DNA of 64,000 nucleotides from an uncultured Candidatus Saccharibacteria bacterium (lineage in GTDB: Bacteria; Patescibacteriota; Minisyncoccia; Minisyncoccales; RBG-13-42-11): positions 24,597 through 88,596 of the forward strand of contig CAYZSL010000002.1 in the NCBI GenBank assembly GCA_964481125.1, given 5' to 3'. Made by a program: the position numbers and the translations under genes. The stretch's first letter is position 1. The number at the start of each line of letters is the position of its first letter. Below, one piece after another: positions 10,652 through 40,268 of this stretch. The notes beneath the pieces were generated by a model. It was not told where the DNA came from. It made no database searches and saw only the letters and a list, made by a program, of their open reading frames with translations.

Positions 10652-11631
10652 AATTTGAATAAAGCTTTTGCTAATTTATTGGAATCGTGACGGATAAGGC
10701 TTCTTTTTAAAATGTCTCCGGGAATGCGCTTTGTCTCTTTTTTGCTTAAAAAATCTCCCCTGATTACTTTAAAATAACTATCTTTTAAATCGTCAACAAC
10801 CGGAAACTCTTTTACTTTCTTGTATTTTGCCAAAGCGCTTTTTGGCATGGATTTTGTATTAATTAAAACATAATCTAAACAATCACGTCCTAAATATTTT
10901 TCCAAAACCTGAATATGGTCTTTGGCAGTAAAACCGAATGTCTGGCCGTATCTTGTCATTAAGTTCATAACATATACTACCTTAGCTTTAGTCTTTTTAA
11001 GAGCACCAGCTATTCCTTCAGTCAGTAATCCAGCTATTAAGCTGGTGTACAAATCACCAGGCCCGATAACAACCAAATCCGCCTTTAAAATCGCGTTCTT
11101 TACTTCTTGATGCAGCTTAGCTTTCGGCTTCAAAAAGACTTTCTTAATCTTTAATTTACCATTATGCTTAGGTCCATCAATTAAATGCTCTCCGATAACT
11201 TTCTTTCCGTTTTCATAAATTGCCACTAAATTTGAATCAGTCAGAGTCACTGGCAAAATTCTACCTTTAATTTTAAGAATCTGGCTTGTTTTCTTAATCG
11301 CTTCCATTTGAGAGCCGAAAATGTCGGACAAAGCAGCTAAAAACAGATTGCCAAAAGTCATACCCTTTAGCCCATTTCCTTTTGAAAAACGATAAATGAA
11401 AAGTTTTCTTAATGACTGCTCTTTGCCTTCTTCAGCTAAAGCAACAAAACACTGCCTTATATCGCTGGTCGGCAGCAAACCCAATTCGTCACGGATAACC
11501 TTGTTGCATCCTCCGCTGTCGGTCATGGAAACAACAGCTGAAATATCAGCCGGATACTTTTTTAAACCGGAAAGAACCGTAAAAGAACCGGTTCCACCCC
11601 CAATAACAACGATTTTCTTAGTTTTTGACAT
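10648..11631 (-). CDS. YvcK/CofD family protein (UPF0052, gluconeogenesis factor-like)
   Basis: 327 aa. N-terminal VVIGGGTG Rossmann motif and YvcK/CofD-like conserved blocks. 4-bp overlap with the upstream gene. Confidence 0.75.
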   Translation of the reverse strand: MSKTKKIVVIGGGTGSFTVLSGLKKYPADISAVVSMTDSGGCNKVIRDELGLLPTSDIRQCFVALAEEGKEQSLRKLFIYRFSKGNGLKGMTFGNLFLAALSDIFGSQMEAIKKTSQILKIKGRILPVTLTDSNLVAIYENGKKVIGEHLIDGPKHNGKLKIKKVFLKPKAKLHQEVKNAILKADLVVIGPGDLYTSLIAGLLTEGIAGALKKTKAKVVYVMNLMTRYGQTFGFTAKDHIQVLEKYLGRDCLDYVLINTKSMPKSALAKYKKVKEFPVVDDLKDSYFKVIRGDFLSKKETKRIPGDILKRSLIRHDSNKLAKALFKL

Positions 11632-11679
11632 AAATCAATTTTTATATTAAACTAAAAATACCTTTAAGTCAAAAAGGCT

Positions 11680-12939
11680 ATGATAGATAAATTTTTAATA
11701 CAAGGAGGTATTCCTCTTTCTGGAGAAGTTGAAATCTCAGGTTATAAGAATTCAGCCGGCGCTATTTTGGCGGCTGTTTTGCTTTCTGAAGAACCTTCTG
11801 TTATTGATAACCTTCCCCAGGTAACTGATGTTTCAAACCAGATTGAAATTCTAAGGCAAATGGGCGCAGAGATCGAACAATTAACTCCGAGAAAAATAAG
11901 AATTAACCCGAAAAACATAGACCCTGAAAAAATCCCAACAGACCTCTTTGAAAAAATGAGGGTTTCGGTATTGTTCATCGCTCCTTTAGCTATAAGGTTC
12001 AAAAAATTCAAAATCCCCCATCCTGGCGGGGACAAAATAGGCTTAAGGCCAATAGCCACGCACTTGGAAGCTCTTGAAAACTTCGGAATAAAAACAGAAG
12101 AAAAAGACGGCTTTTACCATTTCCAAGCACCAGAAAGAATAGAAGGAAAGAAAATAGCTTTAAAGGAGTTTTCAGTGACTGCCACGGAAATCTTAATGAT
12201 GTTAGCTAGTAGAGCCCAAGGAAGAACTAAAATTGAGATTGCCGCTGCCGAACCTCAGGTCCAGGATTTAGGAATGTTTCTGAGAAAAATGGGGACGAAT
12301 ATAGAAGGAATCGGAACTCATACCATTGAAATTGAAGGAAAAGATAAATTATCAGGCGCTGAATTCTCATTATGCCCTGATTTACTGGAAGCTGGAACAT
12401 TTTTTATAGCTTTTGCTTTAACTGGCGGCGAAGGGAAAATAAAGAATGTAAATCCAGACCACATGACTTTTTTCCTGGGAAAAATGAAAGAAATCGGGGT
12501 GAACTTCGATGTTTCGAACAATGAAATTTCAATTAAGAAATCAAATAATTTCAAACCGGCCAAAATCCAGGTTCTTCTTTATCCCGGCTTCCCCACTGAT
12601 TTGCAACCCCAAACATCCGTTCTATTAACCCAATGCCAAGGCAAGTCTCTCGTACACGACCCGCTGTATGAAAACCGATTCCAGCATTTGCACGAATTAA
12701 GAAAGCTGGGTGCTGACATTGAGATCACTGATCCCCACCGGGCTCTGATTTTCGGCAAAACAGAATTAATCGGTAATAAAATAAACGCCTCAGATATCAG
12801 GTCAGGCGCTGCCTTAATCCTGGCAGGATTAATTTCAAAAGGCCAGACAACGATTGAAAACATTTCCCAAATTGAAAGAGGACACGAAAATATTGAGGAA
12901 AAACTGAAAAAGCTAGGAGCTAAAATTGAAAAGATTTAA
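11680..12939 (+). CDS. murA: UDP-N-acetylglucosamine 1-carboxyvinyltransferase
   Basis: 419 aa. EPSP-synthase fold; MurA-type sequence throughout. Confidence 0.9.
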   Translation: MIDKFLIQGGIPLSGEVEISGYKNSAGAILAAVLLSEEPSVIDNLPQVTDVSNQIEILRQMGAEIEQLTPRKIRINPKNIDPEKIPTDLFEKMRVSVLFIAPLAIRFKKFKIPHPGGDKIGLRPIATHLEALENFGIKTEEKDGFYHFQAPERIEGKKIALKEFSVTATEILMMLASRAQGRTKIEIAAAEPQVQDLGMFLRKMGTNIEGIGTHTIEIEGKDKLSGAEFSLCPDLLEAGTFFIAFALTGGEGKIKNVNPDHMTFFLGKMKEIGVNFDVSNNEISIKKSNNFKPAKIQVLLYPGFPTDLQPQTSVLLTQCQGKSLVHDPLYENRFQHLHELRKLGADIEITDPHRALIFGKTELIGNKINASDIRSGAALILAGLISKGQTTIENISQIERGHENIEEKLKKLGAKIEKI

Positions 12940-12991: not shown

Positions 12992-13013
12992 GGATGAACA
13001 ATGTTAGAACCTG
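12992..13013. promoter_or_regulatory. box-1 repeat copy a (GGATGAACAATGTTAGAACCTG)
   Basis: Member of the GACGATGTTAGAAC(C/T)TG motif family that recurs 3' of minus-strand genes in the 13-18 kb array. Confidence 0.5.
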
Positions 13014-13029
13014 GTTTGTAAAAGAAAAA

Positions 13030-13062
13030 TCCCCGAGCATATAACCCAGGGATTTTGTGGAC
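13030..13062 (-). terminator. rho-independent terminator after the 63-aa gene
   Basis: Minus strand: AAAATCCCtgggttatatgctcgGGGATTTTT. Confidence 0.5.
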
Positions 13063-13092
13063 AAAAACTCTCAACAGTTAATCTTCCCTACT

Positions 13093-13284
13093 CTATTTTA
13101 GTTCGGTCCTGATTTTTTTAGGCAACGCTTGCCACTCTTTCCAGGTAAAACGAGACACCCCATCGCAATTTGAACATTTTGCTATGGGCCCATTAACCGG
13201 TTGGTGATTCTTATCTTCACCATCCCAAAAACCTGTTTGTTTCCATTGATGATTACAATCTTTGTTTGGTTTCTTTTCGTCCAT
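13093..13284 (-). CDS. hypothetical small Cys/His-containing protein (63 aa)
   Basis: ATG at 13284 preceded by a strong SD (GAAAGGAGGAAATAatg). CNHQW..CSNCDG motif. The longer ORF to 13386 lacks an RBS. Confidence 0.45.
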   Translation of the reverse strand: MDEKKPNKDCNHQWKQTGFWDGEDKNHQPVNGPIAKCSNCDGVSRFTWKEWQALPKKIRTELK

Positions 13285-13307
13285 TATTTCCTCCTTTCTG
13301 AAATTTA

Positions 13308-13559
13308 TCAATCGTCGTGCGGTTTGAATTTCATCGGTCGAGTGGGAAATCTCGGGGAAGAGACAACATCGACTCTTTTTTTGCATTTAGGGCAGTAACT
13401 GAACTTACATGGGTATATCTTTTGTGCCTTATCTTTAGATAATATCTCTTCTCCTACCCTCAGCTTTGTCCCACAGTCTTTACAGAACATTTCGCCGAAT
13501 TCAAGTTCTCCTACGTCCTTTAGGTTTAATTCCTTCGCTATTTTATTATAATGAGCCAT
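13308..13559 (-). CDS. hypothetical Zn-ribbon protein (83 aa)
   Basis: Strong SD (AAAGGAGGTGTAGCTAatg). Two CxxC pairs (CKDCG..CPKCKK). Confidence 0.5.
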   Translation of the reverse strand: MAHYNKIAKELNLKDVGELEFGEMFCKDCGTKLRVGEEILSKDKAQKIYPCKFSYCPKCKKRVDVVSSPRFPTRPMKFKPHDD

Positions 13560-13620
13560 TAGCTACACCTCCTTTACTATTATCATATTATTGTTTATTT
13601 CTAGAAAATCAAGCCCTCTA

Positions 13621-13650
13621 CCAAAAATCGCCTGTTTGGCGAGGTGGCCG
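13621..13650 (-). promoter_or_regulatory. hairpin + TTTTTGGTAGAG module (terminator / extended -10-like)
   Basis: Minus strand CGCCaaacaGGCGATTTTTGGTAGAGG. Paralogous to the modules at 14425-14462 and 17040-17078. Confidence 0.4.
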
Positions 13651-13652
13651 AA

Positions 13653-13687
13653 ATTAGCTCCGCATCGTGGACGACGTTAGAACCAGG
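13653..13687. promoter_or_regulatory. box-2 copy b2 (ATTAGCTCC..GGACGACGTTAGAACCAGG)
   Basis: Shares TTAGCTCC and ACGnTTAGAACC with the long repeats at 17091-17155 and 17977-18049. Confidence 0.5.
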
Positions 13688-13734
13688 ATTATGGGAATTG
13701 AAGACGTTTTTGTTCCCGATTTGGATCTGTCTTC

Positions 13735-13753
13735 GGGACGATGTTAGAACCTG
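13735..13753. promoter_or_regulatory. box-1 copy b1 (GGGACGATGTTAGAACCTG)
   Basis: Directly abuts the stop codon of the gene at 13756..14391. Confidence 0.5.
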
Positions 13754-13755
13754 TT

Positions 13756-14391
13756 TTACTCTAAAAACCTAAAGGTAGAAAGTATTTGACTGAAAGTTCC
13801 ACAATTCCCTGAATAGCATTCTATAGGTTCAAGTTGATTGAATTCGTATAATTTTCCTTCTTTAAATATGCCTACATAAGCCTTGCTACTTTCATCTTGG
13901 GAAAAAGAAACAACAATTTTATATCCACTTAACCCTCCCACAGTAATTTCTTCTTTTTCAATTAAAGCGTCTCCAAACCCTGCTTCTTTCATCAATACCA
14001 TTTGTTCTTCAAACTCATCTTCCCATTCGGCAAGCGAAGAATACCATGTTTTGATTTGAAGCTCTATTCGTTCTATCGGGGGCAATCCATCAGAAAAATT
14101 CTTAATTTCCTCAATGGACATATTTCTAAACTCAATTTGATAATTTGATAATTCGACATGCCAATTATTAGGATATTTCATCTCAAACCCATATTCTTCA
14201 TTCTTATAAGTTTGCCAATCAGCAGTTTCATCTTGAATTGTTATAATTGTAAAGGTTGTTTGTTGTTCTAATAATGTAGTTGGTTCTGTTTTGGAGTTTT
14301 TACTTCCGAGAAAGTAAAACAATATTAAAAGTCCTCCAAGAAATACAACAATAAATATAATTAAAATTTTAGAAAAAGCTTTGTTTTGCAT
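13756..14391 (-). CDS. secreted/membrane-anchored paralog family protein A (N-terminal TM; ETADWQTYKNEEYGFEMKYP; C-terminal ILSTFRFLE)
   Basis: 211 aa. Shares the DETADWQTY(K/R)NEE(Y/C)GFE block and the ILSTF(K/R)F(L/I)(E/D) motif with the genes at 14634..15704 and 16121..17032. Confidence 0.6.
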   Translation of the reverse strand: MQNKAFSKILIIFIVVFLGGLLILFYFLGSKNSKTEPTTLLEQQTTFTIITIQDETADWQTYKNEEYGFEMKYPNNWHVELSNYQIEFRNMSIEEIKNFSDGLPPIERIELQIKTWYSSLAEWEDEFEEQMVLMKEAGFGDALIEKEEITVGGLSGYKIVVSFSQDESSKAYVGIFKEGKLYEFNQLEPIECYSGNCGTFSQILSTFRFLE

Positions 14392-14424
14392 ATTATTGTA
14401 TTATTTAATTAATCTTTCTTTATT

Positions 14425-14462
14425 CTACCAAAAAACCGCCCAAAACAATAGGCGGAATATTG
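14425..14462 (-). promoter_or_regulatory. hairpin + TTTTTTGGTAGAAT (extended -10-like) module upstream of paralog A
   Basis: Minus strand CCGCCTATTGTTTTGGGCGG-TTTTTTGGTAGAAT. The same module recurs upstream of paralog C at 17040-17078. Confidence 0.45.
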
Positions 14463-14463
14463 T

Positions 14464-14489
14464 CAGCTCGCCAAGTCGGACTTGAACCT
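14464..14489. promoter_or_regulatory. box-2 variant (AGGTTCAAGTCCGACTTGGCGAGCTGA on minus strand)
   Basis: Aligns with the minus-strand AGGTTCTAAGCG..GGGGAGCTAA of the other box-2 copies. Confidence 0.35.
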
Positions 14490-14566
14490 GCCAGCTAAGA
14501 GGAGATTTAGGTCGTTTGGGGAGTGGTACAGCCACGCGTCTCGGTCGGGGCTATTTTAAGCTAAAA

Positions 14567-14582
14567 TGTAACAAATGTTACA
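14567..14582. promoter_or_regulatory. perfect palindrome TGTAACAaaTGTTACA (operator-like), with a second half-site-bearing copy at 14601-14613
   Basis: 7-2-7 inverted repeat in the intergenic region between paralog B and paralog A. Confidence 0.35.
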
Positions 14583-14613
14583 CTAGAAAGGTATATTGGA
14601 GTGTTACATTTTA

Positions 14614-14630
14614 TGACGATGTTCGAACTT
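14614..14630. promoter_or_regulatory. box-1 copy c (TGACGATGTTCGAACTT)
   Basis: Lies immediately 3' of the paralog B stop codon. Core GTTCGAAC is a perfect palindrome. Confidence 0.5.
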
Positions 14631-14633
14631 ATT

Positions 14634-15704
14634 TTAGTCTAGAAATTTAAAAGTATTTTCTATTTTTTCCATTAAACCGCGATTTTGATCAAAATATTCT
14701 TTTGAACCGCTTGCCCCCCTCAACATATAAACAATATTATCACGGATAAAATATGTAGTAACAGTGGGGAAAATAAGAGACTCGTCATGGATCTTTCTTA
14801 CCGCCACCTCTCCCCCGATAATAATCCTTTCCTCTTCCGATTTAATCATACTATCAATGCTTTTACCTTCGCTATCATAAATTATAATATCTAGATCTAT
14901 TTTTTCATTAGGATCAATATCTTGTGTAGTAAACACATGATTTGGGTTATCGCTAATATTTGCAATTCTTTCACCAAGTATAGTTGGATCGCATGTGTAT
15001 TCTTCGGAAGTTAAAATAATACCCTCGGAATATTTTACATATTCACCAACTTTCAGATAAAACTCCTTAGGATATTTTATTTCAAAACCACATTCTTCAT
15101 TCCTGTAAGTCTGCCAATCGGCAGTTTCGTCTGACGTTGAGGTTGATGTCAGATTTGTAGATGGCGTTTCGGTAGATGTTGGCGTAGATACTGAAGTTTT
15201 AGGTATCCACCAATATTGATAAGCTAAAATAGCTCCACCGATGATTGCGGCAGCCAAAACAGTGATAAGGATGCCTATGGGGATAGATATTGTTTTATCT
15301 ATTCCATTAATTTTTTCTTGGTTCGTTATTCTTCTATCTAAATATTGGGCAAATAATATAATAAGGAAAGGTATCCCGAAAAATAAAATATTTGATAAAT
15401 CTGTTTTGTCTAACCTTCCCTGGGTCACAAAAAATAAGCGGTAAGCTTGAAATTCAAGCCAGATTATCCCTAAAATAATCAATCCATAAAGGTATTTGGC
15501 TTTTGTTTTCCTGAAAAACATTATTGAACCGTAAATTATAAAAGGTGCAAAAATAACATTTATGATGAGCGGCCATAAATTTACGTCTTTCCCGCCCATC
15601 AATACGCCGAATAATCCGAGGATAGACCCCCAGAAAAATAGATTAGCTAAACCAAAAAAATATATAGCAATAATAATATTTACTGCGGTAATTATTTTTT
15701 TCAT
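14634..15704 (-). CDS. paralog family protein B (multi-TM N-terminal region + ETADWQTYRNEECGFEIKYP domain; C-terminal ENTFKFLD)
   Basis: 356 aa. Four to five predicted TM helices, a Ser/Thr-rich linker, then the conserved paralog domain. Confidence 0.6.
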   Translation of the reverse strand: MKKIITAVNIIIAIYFFGLANLFFWGSILGLFGVLMGGKDVNLWPLIINVIFAPFIIYGSIMFFRKTKAKYLYGLIILGIIWLEFQAYRLFFVTQGRLDKTDLSNILFFGIPFLIILFAQYLDRRITNQEKINGIDKTISIPIGILITVLAAAIIGGAILAYQYWWIPKTSVSTPTSTETPSTNLTSTSTSDETADWQTYRNEECGFEIKYPKEFYLKVGEYVKYSEGIILTSEEYTCDPTILGERIANISDNPNHVFTTQDIDPNEKIDLDIIIYDSEGKSIDSMIKSEEERIIIGGEVAVRKIHDESLIFPTVTTYFIRDNIVYMLRGASGSKEYFDQNRGLMEKIENTFKFLD

Positions 15705-15724
15705 AATTAATTTAACGATATAAA

Positions 15725-16087
15725 TTAAACGAATCTTTTAGAGATTTTCCAGAAATAAACTAAAATCAGAGTCTGAATAACGGCTGCTATAAGCTGTATA
15801 TTGTCTATACTACGAGATGACAAAAAAGAATAAATTGTATTGATAATAGCTAGGGCAGTTATAACAGTATAGCCATAAAGAGCCCATTTCTTCATTTTTC
15901 GAAGACCGAATGAAGTAACAATAAGACCGACAGCGACAATCAATTCAAGCAATGCTAAGACGGGACTAAAAAGTAAAAGAGGCAATACCATAAACAATGA
16001 ACCAATTCCACCAAGCAATAAAAGAACTGATATATTTTTTACTGGTGATAGAAAAGATGATTTTTCTAAATCTGTTCCTATTTCCAT
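15725..16087 (-). CDS. hypothetical small membrane protein (about four TM helices)
   Basis: 120 aa, hydrophobic throughout. Sits between paralogs B and C. Confidence 0.45.
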   Translation of the reverse strand: MEIGTDLEKSSFLSPVKNISVLLLLGGIGSLFMVLPLLLFSPVLALLELIVAVGLIVTSFGLRKMKKWALYGYTVITALAIINTIYSFLSSRSIDNIQLIAAVIQTLILVYFWKISKRFV

Positions 16088-16120
16088 AATTTAAAATCTG
16101 TTAATTTATTAAATCGACCT

Positions 16121-17032
16121 TTATTCTTTAATAATGCTGAAAAAATCATCGCTGGAATCTGATAATGTGGCTCCTTTCACTCCTGGAAAAGCTCTCATTA
16201 CAATTTTGTATTTAGTGCCTAGCGGAATTGACGAGGGTATCGTCCAAAAATACGGGGGAGCGGCAACATTATCATTAATCATATATGTTTTTGTGGGAGC
16301 AGATAACCAATCCTCAAGCCAAATTGAAACATCGTAAGGCTGTTCCCAATCTATTTTATATGTTTTTCCAATTTCCCAAACTTCTCCGCCATTAGGAGAA
16401 ATCAAAATGAATTTATTTAAACTATCCTCTTCAATAAATTTAAAAGTGGAAAGTATTTTCTCAACACCATCCCTGACCTCATCTTTATACCATCCTGCAG
16501 CATCCCAAAAATCTCCATCAGAAGGACCTAAAGAGCTATAAATAGCAAAAAATTCATTATTTTCTGTTAAGTAACGAATAAATAATTTTTCATCAGTTTT
16601 TATTTCTTCACAAACTTTTTCTCCATCATTTCTTAAACAATAATCTTGAGGACATAATTTTATAAAAAACATATTTTCATATTTATCTTTTGGCATACTT
16701 CCAAAATATGGCTCTATGGGTTTAGTTTTAAAACTTAAAAGGACACATTCTGCTTCAAAAGGAAAGTATCCCTCAGTTGTTGTTCCAATCTCAATTTGAT
16801 ACCCATTTTCTTCAAAGACTGAGGGAACTTCAAATTCAAATCCATACTTCATATTCCTATAAATACCCCCATCGGCAGTTTCGTCGATTGGTTTTTCAGA
16901 AATAACTATATCTGGTTGGTTAGACAATTCTTCCTGGAAGTTGAAATACCGCCAATAGATAAATCCTCCAGCTAATATGGCTGAGATTAAGACAATACTA
17001 ATAGCTATTGTTGTAGGTATTTTCTTGTTCAT
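16121..17032 (-). CDS. paralog family protein C (N-terminal TM; IDETADGGIYRNMKYGFEFEVP; internal ILSTFKFIEE; C-terminal extension)
   Basis: 303 aa. Same domain as A and B plus an extra ~110-aa C-terminal domain. Confidence 0.6.
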   Translation of the reverse strand: MNKKIPTTIAISIVLISAILAGGFIYWRYFNFQEELSNQPDIVISEKPIDETADGGIYRNMKYGFEFEVPSVFEENGYQIEIGTTTEGYFPFEAECVLLSFKTKPIEPYFGSMPKDKYENMFFIKLCPQDYCLRNDGEKVCEEIKTDEKLFIRYLTENNEFFAIYSSLGPSDGDFWDAAGWYKDEVRDGVEKILSTFKFIEEDSLNKFILISPNGGEVWEIGKTYKIDWEQPYDVSIWLEDWLSAPTKTYMINDNVAAPPYFWTIPSSIPLGTKYKIVMRAFPGVKGATLSDSSDDFFSIIKE

Positions 17033-17039
17033 ATTACTC

Positions 17040-17078
17040 TATTCTACCAAAAAACCGCCCAAACAATAAAGCGGTATT
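17040..17078 (-). promoter_or_regulatory. hairpin + TTTTTTGGTAGAAT module directly upstream of paralog C (leaderless-type spacing)
   Basis: Minus strand CCGCTTTATTGTTTGGGCGG-TTTTTTGGTAGAATagagtaatATG. Confidence 0.45.
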
Positions 17079-17090
17079 ATCCACAAGTAA

Positions 17091-17155
17091 TTAGCTCCCC
17101 CTATGCAACACGCTTAGAACCTTAGATTGGATAAAGATAAGGGAAGAATTAGAAG
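17091..17155. repeat. 65-bp direct repeat copy 1 (box-2 d2: TTAGCTCCCCCTATGCAACACGCTTAGAACCTTAGATTGGATAAAGATAAGGGAAGAATTAGAAG)
   Basis: About 80% identical to 17977-18049. Together they flank the Cys-rich gene. Confidence 0.7.
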
Positions 17156-17181
17156 CTTTCGTTATAAAAGTGCCTGCTTTT

Positions 17182-17199
17182 GGACGATGTTAGAACTTG
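17182..17199. promoter_or_regulatory. box-1 copy d1 (GGACGATGTTAGAACTTG)
   Basis: Same motif family, about 75 bp downstream of box-2 d2. Confidence 0.5.
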
Positions 17200-17310
17200 T
17201 ATTTATTTTTAGAAATGAAAAGCCCGCAGAGTTTTGGTTTCTCTTTGGGCTTATCTATTCTTTTAGACCTTATCCCGCTAAGATATTTGGCAGGATGCGT
17301 AGCGAGAACG

Positions 17311-17904
17311 CTATGTGTCCAAGGATTTCGGATTACTCTCCCAGCTTCGCATTATTTTCTTAATCTGCTGGGCCAGGTTGGGCGATTCTTTGAGCTTCTC
17401 TATGAAAACAGGGCACGCTGAACATTCTGTAGCTTTCCCGCCGAACAACAACGATCCTACAAGGGTCTTTGTTAGGGATTTTCTCGGGTCATCATCTTGA
17501 TTCCCGGGCCCTTTAATTTTTGTCTTTTCTTCTTCTTCCGTCATCGTCGGCGGCTCAAGACAGAACTTTTCCCAACCACAAGCTTTGCATTGAGGCAATG
17601 CCTCCTTACTGTCCTGCATTAGCTCTTTAATCTTTTGCGACAAGACGGACTCGTCCATCCTCCGCGCAAGACCGGGACAAACCTGACAGACCTTATCTTT
17701 GCCCAGAAACATCATCGTCCCCATCAGCATACCGAATCCAGCATCCTCTGGGTTATCAAACTCCTCTCGGGCATCTCTCTCCATCGCCCTGAGAGTCGTT
17801 TGCACCTCTTGCCAGGTCATAACCGGTGGTTTAATGCAGAACTGGTTCCACTTACAAGTCTTACAGTTTACCATTGTTTCAACCTCTTCGAGTATGTCAG
17901 CCAT
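17311..17904 (-). CDS. Cys-rich tandem-domain protein (2 x [CKxCxWxxFC..PP..CxxCP]), hypothetical metal-binding
   Basis: 197 aa with SD GGAGG 8 nt upstream. Internal duplication of a ~90-aa unit. About 48% GC, well above neighbours. Flanked by the direct repeats at 17091-17155 and 17977-18049. Confidence 0.6.
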   Translation of the reverse strand: MADILEEVETMVNCKTCKWNQFCIKPPVMTWQEVQTTLRAMERDAREEFDNPEDAGFGMLMGTMMFLGKDKVCQVCPGLARRMDESVLSQKIKELMQDSKEALPQCKACGWEKFCLEPPTMTEEEEKTKIKGPGNQDDDPRKSLTKTLVGSLLFGGKATECSACPVFIEKLKESPNLAQQIKKIMRSWESNPKSLDT

Positions 17905-17941
17905 TTAAAACCTCCAACAATTATTTTATTTTGCTTAAAAT

Positions 17942-17971
17942 AATAATACCATATTATATGGTATTTGTCAA
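17942..17971 (-). promoter_or_regulatory. sigma70-like promoter TTGACA-17-TATTAT for the Cys-rich gene
   Basis: Minus strand CTTGACAaataccatataatatggTATTAT, immediately downstream of the repeat copy 'e' GAGCTAA box. Confidence 0.45.
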
Positions 17972-17976
17972 GTTTT

Positions 17977-18049
17977 TAGCTCCCCCCTATTGGATACGTT
18001 CAGAACTTTAGATTGGGTAAACATAAGGGAAAAGATGAGGGAATTGAGG
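17977..18049. repeat. direct repeat copy 2 (box-2 e)
   Basis: TTAGCTCCCCCCTATTGGATACGTTCAGAACTTTAGATTGGGTAAACATAAGGGAAAAGATGAGGGAATTGAGG. Confidence 0.7.
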
Positions 18050-18171
18050 TTTGCGTAAAGGAAAAGAGCTCAACTGGCGTTGGCTCTTTCTCTTCAATTA
18101 CCTTAGGTCGCTGAGGGCAACCTGATTAGCCAAGAAGCGACTAATCTGTTTAGGATTTTTAACCTAAGTTT

Positions 18172-18426
18172 TTATGCAAACATTGGTCGATACCAGGCCT
18201 TTGGCACGTTTGCATCAATCCACTTGATGGCGACCTCTTTTAAGGTCAACCAAAATATGGAATATAGGGGGGCAGGATATTCATCTGCGGGTCTGTCCCA
18301 AGTAATCCTGTAACCTGGCGTTAATTCCTCAATCTTCGGAATTGCCATCTCCATAACCTCTTCTGCTTGATCTTCAAACATTCCTTTGTCAACCAGCATT
18401 TTTTTAAGCTTTTCTCTTGTTGTCAT
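18172..18426 (-). CDS. hypothetical protein (84 aa)
   Basis: RBS GAGGAAGGA upstream; hairpin terminator downstream (18050-18110). Confidence 0.45.
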   Translation of the reverse strand: MTTREKLKKMLVDKGMFEDQAEEVMEMAIPKIEELTPGYRITWDRPADEYPAPLYSIFWLTLKEVAIKWIDANVPKAWYRPMFA

Positions 18427-18511
18427 TATTTCCTTCCTCTCAGTCTGCTTAGCATTTTTCTAAATCAGCCTATAACAAAATAATACCACATAAATGTGGT
18501 TTTGTCAATAT

Positions 18512-18540
18512 TGGCTCCGGAGGTAGGATTCGAACCGCTA
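18512..18540 (-). other. tRNA 3'-end-like fragment (GGTTCGAATCCTACCTCCGGAGCCA) without a matching 5' half
   Basis: The reverse complement reads as T-loop + T-stem + acceptor 3' strand + discriminator + CCA, but no D-arm, anticodon arm or pairing acceptor 5' strand is present. It abuts the iorB stop codon. Confidence 0.35.
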
Positions 18541-19122
18541 ATTCTTTTTAGCTAATTCGAACGCTTTCAAGTTTAACTCCAAATATTTTTCCGGAATTAG
18601 CTTTTTAATAGCTTTTTGAATAGATAGCGGCTTTAAAGGTATTAAACCTTTAAAAGCGGCAAAGCTCATTAAATAAATCCCTGATACAACGCTGTTTCCC
18701 AGCTTTTCCTGGCAGATTTTTTCAGCTGGAATCAAATGAATGTTTTTGCTGATTTTTTTTAACTGATTCATAATTTCAGCTTCAGACAAAGGTTTTTTCA
18801 AAGGAATGGGAATGACAAACTTATTTATTAAAAAGTTTGTTTTCGGATTGGCAAAATATAGTCCGTTTAAAATCTCCTGCTCTTCCAATCCTAAAACCAG
18901 ATCTGCTTTACCTTGAGCAACCATAGGAGAATAAATTTTCTTGCCAAACCTGATATGCACTTCAACTGAACCGCCTCTCTGGGATAAGCCGTGAAGCTCG
19001 GAAGTCCTGACATTATAACCTTCAAACACAGCTGCTTCTGAAATTATCTGTAAAAGAGTAATCAAGCCCTGTCCTCCAGTGCCAACTATCATCATATTAA
19101 ATTGTTCTGCTTTTTTAATCAT
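18538..19122 (-). CDS. iorB: indolepyruvate/2-oxoacid:ferredoxin oxidoreductase subunit beta (gamma-type)
   Basis: 194 aa. MIVGTGGQG motif of POR/IOR gamma domains. 4-bp overlap with iorA. Confidence 0.7.
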   Translation of the reverse strand: MIKKAEQFNMMIVGTGGQGLITLLQIISEAAVFEGYNVRTSELHGLSQRGGSVEVHIRFGKKIYSPMVAQGKADLVLGLEEQEILNGLYFANPKTNFLINKFVIPIPLKKPLSEAEIMNQLKKISKNIHLIPAEKICQEKLGNSVVSGIYLMSFAAFKGLIPLKPLSIQKAIKKLIPEKYLELNLKAFELAKKN

Positions 19123-22592: not shown

Positions 22593-24992
22593 TTAGATTA
22601 CGATATTTATTAATCTTCCGGGAACAAAAATTACCTTTTTAATTTCTTTATTCTGTATCCATTTTTTAACATTTTGACTGGAAATTGCAAGTTCTTTGGC
22701 TTTTTCTTCGGAAATATCAATTTCAACTTCGATTTTGTCCCTGACCCTGCCGTTAACCTGAATAACCAAGGTTATCATATCGTCTTTAATCAGTTTCTTG
22801 TCGTATTTCGGCCAAGATTGCTTATGGATCGAATCCTTATTCCCTAACTGCCTCCAAAGCTCTTCAGTAATATGCGGCGCAAAAGGAGCTAAAATGATCA
22901 AGAATAAAGAATAATAAGAAAGAGAAATCTTTTCTTCTTTTTCAAAACGATTGGCCAATATCATTAAAGCTGAAACTGCTGTATTGAATTTAAAATCCTC
23001 CAAATCCTCATTTATTTTTTTAATTGTTTTATGAACCAGCTTCTCCAATTCTTGGTTTTTAATTCCTTTTTCCTGATTCACTTTAAAACTTAATTTCCAT
23101 ACCTTATCTAAAAACCTATAACAACCTTTCAACCCATTAATATTCCAATTAATCGCCTGATCAAAAGGGCCCATAAACATTTCATAAAGTCTCAAGCTGT
23201 CAGCGCCAAAAGTTTTTACAATGTCATCGGGATTAATGACATTACCGAAAGACTTTGACATTTTTCTGCTGTCTTCAGCCAAGACTATGCCGTGCGAAGT
23301 CCTTCTTTTGTACGGTTCTGACCCTGGAACAACGCCGATATCATAAAGGAACTTGTACCAAAAACGGGAATACAGCAAATGCAAAGTAGTATGTTCAAAC
23401 CCTCCATTGTACCAGTCAACCGGCAACCAATGTTTTAATTTCTTTTTATCAGCTATTTTTTTATCATTTCCAGGATCAGTATAACGAATGTAATACCAAT
23501 TAGAGCCTGCCCAGTTGGGCATAGTATCTGTTTCTCTTTTGGCGGACCCTTTGCATTTCGGGCATTTTACATTAACCCACTCTTCAATTTTGGATAAAGG
23601 TGATTCTCCTGTTCCTGTTGGCTGGTATTTTTCAACATATGGGAGTTCAATCGGCAATTCCTTTTCTGAGACAGAAACTGCTCCGCATTTTTCACAATGG
23701 ATAATCGGAATCGGCTCTCCCCAGTAATGCTGCCTGGAAAAAACCCAATCACGTAGTTTGTACTGAATTGTTTTTTTGCCGAGTTTTTTCTTTTCCAGCC
23801 ATTCGGTTATTTTCTTGATTGCTTGTTCAGATGTTAATCCATTAAATTCTTCAGAATTAACTAAAACTCCGTAACCAACAAAGGCTTCTTTAGAAATATC
23901 GCCCCCTGAAATGACTTCCCTGATTTCCAATCCATATTTCTTGGCAAAATCGTAATCGCGGTAATCGTGTGCTGGCACCGTCATAACCGCTCCTCCGCCG
24001 TAAGCAGCTACTATATAATCACCGATCCAGACAGGCACCTTCTCGCTATTAATCGGATTCAAACAAAAGGAACCGGTAAAAACGCCTGTTTTTTCTTTTT
24101 CCAATTCTGTTCTTTCGAATTCGCTTTTCTTTTTTGATTCTTCAATATACTTTGCAACTTCCTCTCTGCGTTCTTCTTTCGTTATCTTTTGGATTAAGGG
24201 ATGCTCTGGAGCCAAAACAACTGCCGTTACCCCGAAAATAGTATCTATCCTAGTGGTAAAAACTTTTATTGATTCCTGAGAATCAACCAGTTTAAAATCA
24301 ACTTCAGCCCCGTAACTCTTGCCAATCCAGTTAATCTGCTGGGTTTTGATTTTTTCAAGGTAATCAACCTTGTCCAAATCTTCAATCAATCGATCGGCAT
24401 ATTTTGTTATTTTCAATAACCATTGTTTTATCGTTTTTTGTTCGGTTTGGGCATCGCAACGCTCGCACTTGCCGTCCACCACTTCCTCGTGAGCCAAACC
24501 GATCCTACAAGAGGGACACCAATTAATAGGAATTTCTGCTTGATAGGCCAATCCCTTTTTGAATAGTTGTAAAAATATCCACTGAGTCCATTTATAATAC
24601 TTTGGGTCAGTAGTATTTATTTCCCGGCTCCAATCAAAAGAAAGACCCAAAGATTTCAACTGTCTCTTGAAATTAGCGATATTTTTCTCAGTAGCCACTT
24701 GCGGATGAACGCCTGTTTTTATGGCATAGTTTTCAGTCGGCAAACCAAAAGCGTCCCAGCCAATGGGATATAAAACATTAAAGCCCTCCATTCTTTTTTT
24801 TCTAGCTACTGCATCTAATGCAGAATAGCTGCGGCAGTGGCCGACATGAAGACCATCCCCCGAAGGATAAGGAAATTCAATAAGAATGTATTGTTTCGGC
24901 TTTTTCGAAGAATCTTCAGCCTTGTAAAAGCCGTTTTTCTCCCAATATTCCTGCCATTTTTTCTCAATTTTCTGCGGATTATATGATTCCAT
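22593..24992 (-). CDS. leuS: leucyl-tRNA synthetase
   Basis: 799 aa. HIGH-type motif LHVGHCRSY and KMSKS (RKMSKSFGN). Confidence 0.9.
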   Translation of the reverse strand: MESYNPQKIEKKWQEYWEKNGFYKAEDSSKKPKQYILIEFPYPSGDGLHVGHCRSYSALDAVARKKRMEGFNVLYPIGWDAFGLPTENYAIKTGVHPQVATEKNIANFKRQLKSLGLSFDWSREINTTDPKYYKWTQWIFLQLFKKGLAYQAEIPINWCPSCRIGLAHEEVVDGKCERCDAQTEQKTIKQWLLKITKYADRLIEDLDKVDYLEKIKTQQINWIGKSYGAEVDFKLVDSQESIKVFTTRIDTIFGVTAVVLAPEHPLIQKITKEERREEVAKYIEESKKKSEFERTELEKEKTGVFTGSFCLNPINSEKVPVWIGDYIVAAYGGGAVMTVPAHDYRDYDFAKKYGLEIREVISGGDISKEAFVGYGVLVNSEEFNGLTSEQAIKKITEWLEKKKLGKKTIQYKLRDWVFSRQHYWGEPIPIIHCEKCGAVSVSEKELPIELPYVEKYQPTGTGESPLSKIEEWVNVKCPKCKGSAKRETDTMPNWAGSNWYYIRYTDPGNDKKIADKKKLKHWLPVDWYNGGFEHTTLHLLYSRFWYKFLYDIGVVPGSEPYKRRTSHGIVLAEDSRKMSKSFGNVINPDDIVKTFGADSLRLYEMFMGPFDQAINWNINGLKGCYRFLDKVWKLSFKVNQEKGIKNQELEKLVHKTIKKINEDLEDFKFNTAVSALMILANRFEKEEKISLSYYSLFLIILAPFAPHITEELWRQLGNKDSIHKQSWPKYDKKLIKDDMITLVIQVNGRVRDKIEVEIDISEEKAKELAISSQNVKKWIQNKEIKKVIFVPGRLINIVI

Positions 24993-39839: not shown

Positions 39840-40268
39840 TGACTTTTTCATACACTTCTGTTAAAAATAGGGCAAGGCATGGAAACAGTGAGGTTCACCA
39901 CACAAGCTGCATAGCGCTGGTATGCTTATCGCCTAACGGCATATTGGTTGTGGGGGAGGTTCGAATCCTCCAAACTGATTCTATTGAGAAACTCGTAATG
40001 TAGAAAAGCAGACTCCACCAATGTCGAGGCGGACTGAAAAGTGGTCAAAAGTTGCGATAGGAACTGGGAGGAGATAAAACTTGGTTTTAAAAACTGTATG
40101 TCTCCGTCAGTGGAATACCACCCTTTACGAGTTTGCCCTCATTAGTCTCTCCTGTTTAGAGAGCTGATGACTCAAGGATTCCATGCTAAGGGAGTATACT
40201 TCGGCTAGCAGAAGACTCTTTTAAAAGAGTACACCTCAGCCACCAGAAGCTCCCTTTTTTTTATTAAA
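39840..40268 (+). ncRNA. structured RNA of unknown identity between argS and smpB (promoter TTGACT-17-TAAAAA at 39840-39875; terminator with T8 at 40195-40268)
   Basis: About 370-nt transcript. Long-range 5'/3' pairing GGCATGGAA/TTCCATGCT. Internal T-arm-like hairpin GGAGGTTCGAATCCTCC. Terminal GGGAG..CTCCC + TTTTTTTT. No ORF longer than 30 codons. Confidence 0.3.

Follow-up and report, generated by a model that had tools for sequence, protein, structure and literature searches.

Organization of the locus

The stretch of DNA analysed here (64,000 nucleotides of contig CAYZSL010000002.1 from an uncultured Candidatus Saccharibacteria bacterium, positions 24,597 to 88,596, referred to below as the window) contains an array of small genes which is punctuated by a conserved junction element. 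The array runs from position 18536 to 12997 and is flanked by two convergent housekeeping genes, murA (11680–12939, plus strand) and the gene of the gamma subunit of pyruvate:ferredoxin oxidoreductase (por-gamma, 18538–19122, minus strand). The best matches of murA are found in metagenome-assembled genomes of Candidatus Nealsonbacteria and Paceibacterota (84% and 82% identity), which points to the Patescibacteria. All genes between 13093 and 18426 are encoded on the minus strand. With high confidence the array can be described as a head formed by a tRNA-Asn fragment, five cassettes consisting of promoter, gene or genes and terminator, the junctions E, D, C and B between them, and a tail consisting of a single box-1 repeat. 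Each cassette runs from the sequence GGAGC, continues with a promoter of its own and between one and three genes, in most cases followed by a terminator, and extends to the next 16-nt box.

A preliminary description of this DNA reported two repeats, box-1 behind the genes and box-2 ahead of the promoters, with a shared near-palindromic core GTT(A/C)GAAC. Both repeats exist. Scanning the window with box-1 (GACGATGTTAGAACYTG, at most three mismatches) gave five matches, all on the plus strand (12997–13013, 13670–13686, 13737–13753, 14615–14631 and 17183–17199), where 0.21 are expected by chance and none of 100 shuffled sequences reached five; the match at 13670 falls within a site previously listed as box-2. 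The 8-mer core GTTAGAAC occurs only four times in the 64 kb, always in the array and on one strand. The box-2 tail TTAGCTCC(C/G)C is present at 13654, 17091 and 17976; this short tail by itself is not above chance, and the full box-2 element of ~60 nt is highly significant (nhmmer E-values of 5e-17 and 3e-15). The sites are thus those first described, with exact positions that were 1–5 nt off, and the shared core is more aptly given as GGTTC(T/G)AA, which resembles a T-loop. Because all array genes lie on the minus strand, the boxes are best read as the reverse complement, in which box-1 is GGTTCTAACATCGTCC and box-2 is ...GGTTCTAA(G/C)..GT..-N-GGGGAGC. Box-1 is located 2, 2, 79 and 111 nt past the upstream stop codon, in part farther than the 0–75 bp originally given, and box-2 58–94 nt ahead of the next start codon, somewhat farther than the original 35–60 bp. 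The cores of box-1 and box-2 are 67 and 76 nt apart in two junctions, close to the 65–75 bp first reported; the spacing is ~140 nt in a third, and the element at 17979–18040 has no box-1.

Read in the direction of the genes (all features on the minus strand), the array starts 1 nt past the stop codon of por-gamma with the 3′-terminal 25 nt of tRNA-Asn, GGTTCGAATCCTACCTCCGGAGCCA (18512–18536), which comprise the T-loop, the 3′ strands of T-stem and acceptor stem, and CCA. This sixth junction had been overlooked in the preliminary description. It is followed by a strong promoter, TTGACA-17-TATTAT with TG (type 1), that contains the palindrome ACCACATTTATGTGGT (18480–18508), by cassette 1 coding for an orphan protein of 84 amino acids (18172–18426), and by an intrinsic terminator at ~18059–18086. 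Junction E consists of the long box-2 element TTCCCTTATGTTTACCCAATCTAAAGTTCTGAACGTATCCAATAGGGGGGAGC (17979–18040, E 3e-15; formerly placed at 17977). It precedes a second type-1 promoter with the palindrome ACCATATAATATGGT (17943–17971) and cassette 2, which encodes a cysteine-rich orphan protein of 197 amino acids and has its own terminator (17311–17904). In junction D, box-1 (CAAGTTCTAACATCGTC, 17183–17199) is combined with a long box-2 element (17094–17154, E 5e-17) with a second core GGTTCTAAGCGTGTTG at 17106–17121 and GGGGGAGC at 17094–17101. From here on the junctions are followed by a different conserved module (type 2), a hairpin, a T-run and the extended −10 sequence TGGTAGAAT; at junction D its hairpin is ACCGCTTTATTGTTTGGGCGGT and it ends 8 nt before the ATG (17041–17075).

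Cassette 3 (14634–17032) comprises three genes coding for proteins of 303, 120 (a membrane protein) and 356 amino acids. Two nucleotides past its last stop codon junction C begins with box-1 (AAGTTCGAACATCGTCA, 14615–14631), and its right-hand unit GGTTCAAGTCCGACTTGGCGAGC (14466–14488) is a variant resembling the tRNA 3′ end; the degenerate box-2 that had been noticed near 14464 is therefore real and corresponds to this variant. The type-2 module of junction C (14422–14455) has the hairpin CCGCCTATTGTTTTGGGCGG, the T-run and TGGTAGAAT, and is followed by cassette 4, a PsbP-like secreted protein of 211 amino acids (13756–14391). Junction B has box-1 GGTTCTAACATCGTCC 2 nt past the stop codon (13737–13753) and a complete minimal unit GGTTCTAACGTCGTCC-ACGATGC-GGAGC (13657–13684, formerly the box-2 at 13653), which is found identically in the related locus L040. 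A degenerate type-2 module with the hairpin TCGCCAAACAGGCGA and TTTTTGGTAGAGG (13617–13642) leads to cassette 5, two small orphan genes of zinc-ribbon type (13093–13559) with a terminator at 13026–13056. The array ends with box-1 alone (GGTTCTAACATTGTTC, 12997–13013), which has no GGAGC behind it and abuts the murA terminator.

The junction element in related loci

A metagenome scan with a 20-base pattern of box-2 yielded 33 loci (related loci are here designated by L and a number) with ~29 true copies of the 60-nt element, whose consensus is TAATTCTTCCCTTATnTTnnnCCAATCnAnnGTTCTrAAyGyGTCCAATAGGGGGAGC. Several of these copies have a box-1 ~45 nt ahead, and a profile search showed two to four copies per locus in many of the loci. 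The element is always oriented with the flanking genes and lies 50–200 nt upstream of the next start codon. The 16-nt box is found 47 times in 259 kb of related loci compared to ~0.85 times in shuffled sequences, and the ten loci with at least two boxes use one orientation throughout (36 of 36 copies). GGAGC follows the box after 5–8 nt in 26 of 45 copies. Since the box searches show this layout of box and then GGAGC, we regard GGTTCTAACATCGTCC-N7-GGAGC as the minimal junction; its extended form on the gene strand is (ATAAAACA)GGTTCTAACATCGTCC-N7-GGAGC. The pair of box-1 and box-2 is accordingly the long variant, in which a box and a second unit enclose a conserved filler of ~60 nt that has no forward gene, and shorter variants with two units or one unit are found around the same cassette in other loci. 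Viral contigs searched with two patterns contained no match to the element, and we found no description of such arrays in bacteria of the candidate phyla radiation (CPR) in the literature.

Relation to tRNA-Asn

The unit is laid out like the tRNA-Asn 3′ end (GGTTCGAATCC-TACCCGC-GGAGC), except that five additional bases stand behind the T-loop. Repeats and tRNA end have in common GGTTCnAA, CC, an N7 similar to TACCCGC (often GTCCCTC, GCTCCGC or CACCCGC) and GGAGC, but the repeats carry the 5-nt insertion. Closer to the tRNA are a unit in L059 with CACCCGC as N7 and the right-hand unit of junction C, which matches the 3′ end of tRNA-Asn in length and layout and, as read from the sequence, is identical to it at ~17 of 23 positions.

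Moreover, tRNA-Asn is found at the head of the arrays. Four of them (L030, L042, L043 and L053) are headed by an intact, co-oriented tRNA-Asn(GTT) gene and three (L054, L051 and the window) by a 3′ fragment, which in the window and L051 adjoins the stop codon of the gene upstream. At the head of the window array neither tRNA detection nor Rfam called an intact tRNA, only the 3′-terminal 25 nt being present, and compared with the tRNA-Asn(GTT) genes of L030 and L054 the fragment has two mismatches in 23 positions. In L043 the end of the tRNA and a unit located 1.5 kb downstream are followed, behind GGAGC, by an identical promoter sequence of 32 nt. Elsewhere in the window, the ~410 nt upstream of an smpB-like open reading frame (ORF) and the transfer-messenger RNA (tmRNA) gene (39850–40260, plus strand) contain no ORF; they include a perfect T-arm-like hairpin GGGGGAGGTTCGAATCCTCC at 39952–39972, for which there is neither a tRNA call nor an Rfam match at the gathering threshold.

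Proposed exchange of cassettes

The site between por and murA is occupied differently in relatives. Both genes directly adjoin in L006. The ~75 nt between them in L008 retain CTTACCCGCCGAGC, in which 12 of 14 positions agree with the tRNA-Asn end. The gap comprises 1.7 kb with two other genes in L004 and 5 kb of yet other genes in L005. In L004 a T-loop-like sequence and GGGGAGCC come after por, followed by the module of hairpin and TGGTAGAAT and one HAD-like gene, and 10 nt past the stop codon of this gene stands a box-1 in the ACATTGT variant, as in the tail box of the window. As L004 and the window share this frame and differ in their genes, head and tail are conserved and the content between them has been replaced. 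In L004 we also noticed that ~60 nt of the murA 3′ end (11240–11296) are duplicated at 12100–12160, beyond the inserted gene 11324–12028; judged from this duplication, a separate insertion apparently used the murA 3′ end as target and carried a replacement copy.

Single cassettes can be followed between loci. A cassette with the cold-shock gene csp is common to L030, L056, L037 and L033/L038 with 78–88% identity and has different neighbours in each of them. Between L030 and L056 the homology extends from TGGGGAGC to 4 nt past the 16-nt box (BLAST end points, which are approximate), so that both ends fall inside the N7 spacer while the flanking junction variants differ. L035 and L059 have 97% identity along a gene and for ~30 nt past it, after which both the junction variants and the genes downstream differ. 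Some contigs of other samples match the window at 100% and stop at 13003, 14615, 13658 and 17104, within boxes or GGAGC, which as weak evidence hints at branching assemblies. Proteins identical to those of the cassettes occur in other samples only in the same arrangement and on short contigs, with no alternative order of the window cassettes.

We suggest that the boxes are the two most conserved parts of a junction element which delimits cassettes, and that cassettes were serially inserted, lost and exchanged at its units; on balance we give this interpretation an even chance. One of the two proposals of the preliminary description, that the boxes are junction scars of serial cassette acquisition, is supported: the por–murA site is empty or differently filled in relatives, the arrays are unidirectional and start at tRNA-Asn, and the homology of cassettes ends at the unit.

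As to the mechanism, in which we have moderate confidence, cassettes would be inserted, lost and swapped by recombination at the units, with serial insertion at an attachment site of tRNA-Asn type. The incoming cassettes could be circular or linear. The head would then represent the left half of the target joined to the right half of a cassette, internal sites would consist of two cassette halves, and the tail would be the left half of a cassette joined to the target flank. Integrons and tandem islands at tRNA genes show this structure as well. The crossover would be expected in or near the 7-nt spacer between the imperfectly inverted (G)TCC and GGA(G), as in the core sites of tyrosine recombinases. 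Because no recombinase was found in the ORFs tested at the loci and the element is absent from the viral contigs, such an enzyme would have to act in trans. Alternatively, RecA-type homologous exchange between the conserved modules of 30–170 nt could take place after DNA uptake.

Several observations weigh against exchange at the units. Pfam searches revealed no integrase or recombinase in 130 ORFs of related loci, and no recombinase was present in ten ORFs at the array ends or, in the part of the window ORFs scanned, in ten ORFs adjoining tRNA and tmRNA genes. No excised circle came to light, and no two near-identical strains were seen whose difference was exactly one cassette. N7 varies among the units of the window array, contrary to what a strict overlap model of tyrosine recombination predicts, and some breakpoints between related loci are tens of nucleotides away from the unit. 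The long element contains a helix with double changes and a codon-like reading on the opposite strand, which a pure DNA site leaves unexplained. Finally, its 5-nt insertion prevents the unit from taking the place of a functional tRNA 3′ end, so that the resemblance to the tRNA could reflect ancestry and not a present function.

Alternative explanations

The gene strand of the element could specify a structured RNA which serves as a stabiliser or processing signal in the 3′ untranslated region (UTR) or as a leader and whose tRNA-like shape might recruit tRNA-processing enzymes. A helix of 10 bp, CUUCCCUUAU/AUAGGGGGAG, is 92.9% paired over 35 copies and has conserved G–U pairs that can form on the gene strand only. 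Four of its pairs are changed on both sides compared with 0.9 in shuffles (0/500), but each of these double changes is found in one sequence only, the covariation term of RNAalifold is ~0 and the single-sequence folds tested with DNA parameters are no better than shuffles. At several junctions box-1 stands 2 nt past the stop codon with no terminator between and a hairpin with T-run after the element, which implies transcription as a 3′ UTR; many other copies, however, have a terminator before and a promoter after them and would be transcribed from neither gene. As there is in addition no match to Rfam (15) at gathering or permissive E-value thresholds in the window array and three related loci, we consider an RNA function improbable.

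It is similarly improbable that the boxes are a passive by-product, that is, functionless hitch-hikers that were carried along when a promoter downstream of tRNA-Asn was repeatedly duplicated jointly with part of the tRNA 3′ end. One promoter type indeed follows both the tRNA-Asn gene and many of the units, and the tandem paralogs in the window testify to local duplication. Nevertheless, conservation of the 16-nt box exceeds that of the promoters behind it, and this across organisms and three promoter types. Tail boxes exist without any promoter, and the flanks of one and the same cassette carry different junction variants.

The other proposal of the preliminary description, direct repeats bound by one regulator that controls a regulon of paralogs, is not supported. 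In its favour, the 16-nt box hardly changes over 45 copies, in contrast to the variable N7, two direct copies 47–76 nt apart stand upstream of promoters, and GGAGC is fixed at 7–9 nt from the −35 hexamer in junctions with a type-1 promoter. The associated genes include stress-type genes, namely csp and those of an RRM protein, a desulfoferrodoxin and a cation ATPase. On the other hand, the flanked genes are non-paralogous and in ~30 other contigs the element stands beside unrelated genes. The terminal box at 12997–13013 has no downstream gene, so that the fixed and exclusive position at promoters which characterizes an operator is not seen; the distance to the promoter is variable and three unrelated promoter modules follow the unit. 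A better operator candidate is a separate palindrome within the promoter, ATACCAC-N6-GTGGTAT. Regulation would furthermore leave the anchoring at tRNA-Asn, the empty site in relatives and the conservation of the 60 nt between the repeats unexplained, and we therefore regard it as unlikely.

The least probable explanation is an antisense gene, in which the long element would encode a peptide of 32–45 amino acids, (M)LPLLDAFRTLDWKKIREELE...GRC*, on the plus strand of the window, with its start in box-2 and its stop codon in box-1 (GGA CGA TGT TAG). The frame is open in nearly all copies, some of which have an ATG directly before LPL, and substitutions are fewest at codon position 2 (3.5 per site compared with 8.8 at position 1 and 7.6 at position 3). 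A profile search of 1.84e9 representative proteins found ~50 short predicted proteins with the motif, which differ by conservative changes (R/K, I/V/L, D/N) and have family-specific tails. This explanation is very improbable, as both window copies lack a start codon (at 17092–17094 a TAG immediately precedes LPL), as the ratio of nonsynonymous to synonymous polymorphism (six frames tested) is 0.42–0.52 in frame and 0.41–0.66 in three other frames, so that these coding tests, like the phase of the substitutions, do not discriminate, as there is neither a Pfam family nor a longer parent protein (three spurious short ORFs in 5.8e9 proteins and no long family in the 1.84e9 representatives), and as the minimal units, the commoner form of the junction, are too short for the peptide. 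Should the element be the gene of an RNA or a micro-protein after all, it would still be a widespread conserved element that has no Rfam or Pfam entry.

Comparison with known systems

The preliminary description had excluded CRISPR and integron attC sites, and both exclusions hold. CRISPR arrays have repeats of 23–50 nt with regular spacers of 25–60 nt; the units have 28 nt but are spaced by 0.07–2.6 kb and their intervals hold genes. The boxes are direct repeats (13/16) and not inverted ones as in attC. The attC core sequences RYYYAAC and GTTRRRY are also not recovered, as GGTTCTAAC / GGTTCTAA(A/G) stands at either end without a change of direction and GTTCTAA does not fit GTTRRRY. DNA folds gave no attC-like hairpin for junctions B and D (both strands) or for the stretches A and E (gene strand), with z between −1.0 and +0.9. 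The fold of junction C has z = −2.8, which results from a hairpin in the spacer and not from pairing of the boxes. The array head consists of por-gamma and the tRNA-Asn fragment; neither intI nor attI was found there in the related loci and the part of the window ORFs scanned.

The closest functional systems are integrons, or integrase-less clusters of attC sites (CALIN), and tandem islands at asn-tRNA genes. The locus differs from them in defining features: it has no inverted cores and no hairpin, neither IntI nor an island-borne integrase was found in the ORFs tested, and its repeats are not identical to the tRNA end. With integrons and CALIN the arrays share the unidirectional order of small and mostly orphan genes, one repeat between cassettes whose ends are more conserved than its middle, the lack of a recombinase in the cassettes and a content that varies between close relatives. 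In contrast to integrons, the repeats here are direct and not inverted R″/R′ cores, form no attC hairpin and have no IntI or attI nearby, and the cassettes have their own promoters and terminators and are anchored at a tRNA-Asn 3′ end.

The asn-tRNA loci are classical targets of islands in enterobacteria, for example of ICEKp and of the Yersinia high-pathogenicity island. Common to such islands and the arrays are a tRNA-Asn gene or its 3′ end at the head, direct repeats similar to the tRNA 3′ end that bound segments, and an empty site in relatives. However, islands have 10–100 kb and carry int, whereas the segments here have 0.6–2.6 kb and no integrase. No integrase gene adjoining the tRNA-proximal end was found in the ORFs tested. 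In addition, the repeat is here a diverged mimic with a 5-nt insertion, and the tRNA itself is absent from the window array. Archaeal integrated elements are reportedly bordered by fragments of tRNA genes. In a similar way, serial capture leaves direct repeats of tRNA fragments, and short, conserved fragments of ORFs lie across the att site; the archaeal elements stem from viruses or plasmids and have a partitioned integrase gene, whereas here no parent protein is seen for the short ORF and the hosts are bacteria.

The arrays also resemble modules that depend on Xer recombinases (pdif modules and integrative mobile elements exploiting Xer, IMEX), which are small, lack a recombinase and offer short sites to a tyrosine recombinase of the host, with a core of 6–8 nt between imperfect inverted arms. 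The unit reads as an imperfect inverted TCC-N7-GGA without dif-like arms. Moreover, pdif modules have pairs of inverted 28-nt sites with the dif consensus, whereas the units are direct, tRNA-like and without similarity to dif. Pneumococcal BOX elements and transposable elements of the miniature inverted-repeat type (MITEs) are likewise composite, modular and conserved intergenic elements near promoters. In contrast to these, no inverted repeat bounds the junction element and there are no target-site duplications, its orientation follows the genes, and it is clustered in the array and present nowhere else in the 64 kb. A true MITE was encountered in L033 and looks quite unlike the junction element: an indel of 149 nt between L033 and L038, at first considered as gain or loss of a unit, turned out to be unrelated and MITE-like (L033 5538–5686, absent in L038 at ~4509), with the terminal inverted repeats CCCCGTAGAGAAATTTCGAA...TTCGAAATTCTTCTACGGGG and TATG flanks; around it both loci are 99.9–100% identical.

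Given these comparisons, we tentatively put forward, as a possibility that we rate below the exchange of cassettes as such, that the Patescibacteria own an integron-like system of gene capture. Its standard cassette would be composed of a junction unit, one of a few conserved promoter modules, the cargo and a conserved terminator module, and cassettes would be integrated and shuffled at the mimic of the tRNA-Asn 3′ end, either through a recombinase whose gene lies elsewhere in the genome or through general recombination of the host after DNA uptake. To our knowledge, the CPR bacteria have very small genomes with few recognised mobile elements, and most of their lineages have no cultured genetic system. 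If true, these tiny genomes would possess a dedicated locus for self-expressing accessory genes and an undescribed route of gene gain and loss would operate across a large part of the bacterial tree. The attachment unit, the promoters and the terminators would then be natural parts for the construction of genetic tools.

Cargo genes

The genes of the window array are small and mostly without family assignment. Besides the zinc-ribbon proteins, the membrane protein, the cysteine-rich 197-amino-acid protein and the 84-amino-acid protein, they code for three secreted proteins that are PsbP-like or related in their N-terminal part. Two proteins of cassette 3 are paralogs of the cassette 4 protein. 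The three secreted proteins (13756–14391, 14634–15704 and 16121–17032) share ETADWQTY(K/R)NEE(Y/C)GFE(M/I)KYP after an N-terminal membrane anchor. The nucleotide identity of the paralogs reaches 86% over 66 nt, which indicates recent duplication or gene conversion within the array. For the 197-amino-acid protein a homolog search of 5.8e9 proteins returned only four. Its homolog in L024 (62% amino acid identity) has box-2 upstream and box-1 downstream, and these flanking boxes are better conserved than the protein itself. As listed, the two ORFs of cassette 5 (13093–13386 and 13308–13559) have 79 nt in common; since the public gene call is shorter (63 amino acids, 13093–13284), it is uncertain where the distal gene starts.

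Other arrays carry csp, an engB-like GTPase gene, methyltransferase genes, HAD hydrolase genes and others. Cassettes for a cold-shock protein and for a glycine-rich RNA-binding protein of RRM type (L056 4880–5076 and 2294–2677; L051 6328–6709) have long conserved 5′ UTRs, and the EngB-like GTPase gene L056 4016–4654 is situated behind a junction element. A conserved block of ~450 nt common to several arrays, which had been suspected to be a non-coding RNA gene, proved to be the csp cassette with an ORF of 65 amino acids.

Promoter and terminator modules

The type-1 promoter with its palindrome is found after tRNA-Asn in L030 and L043 and after junction elements in L030, L037, L051 and L043. 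The palindrome ATACCAC-N6-GTGGTAT fills the spacer between −35 and −10 (window 18480–18508 and 17943–17971; L030 1762 and 2336; L037 179; L043 1614 and 106; L051 3321). It is likely a repressor operator common to the cassettes and to the promoter downstream of tRNA-Asn. Owing to its symmetry a −10-like TATTGT is also present on the opposite strand, pointing into the junction element.

The type-2 module is a fusion of terminator and promoter, (AAAATCGCCAAGAA)GGCGG, TTTTTT, GGTAGAAT, with more than 35 copies across related loci (L004, L030–L061); within the window its form TGGTAGAAT is restricted to this array. In many copies only 6–8 nt separate the module from the ATG, so that the mRNAs would be leaderless. 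A conserved 3′ module of ~130 nt ending with TTTATTTAGGACAAGAAATCAGC...GCTGGTTTTTTG is present downstream of unrelated cassette genes (L025 955–1089, L030 2652–2783, and also L035, L036, L046 and L061); with its nested hairpins AGCGGG...CCCGCT and GAAGAC...GTCTTC it may be a structured 3′ UTR. A third module, AGG(A/C)TAGTG....GTTCGGGAGACCGAAAC or ...GACCGAGAC..., stands behind many of the GGAGC ends and forms a hairpin with a GAGA-type loop (L033 14808, L035 62, L037 6662, L036 973, L048, and 14520–14545 in the window).

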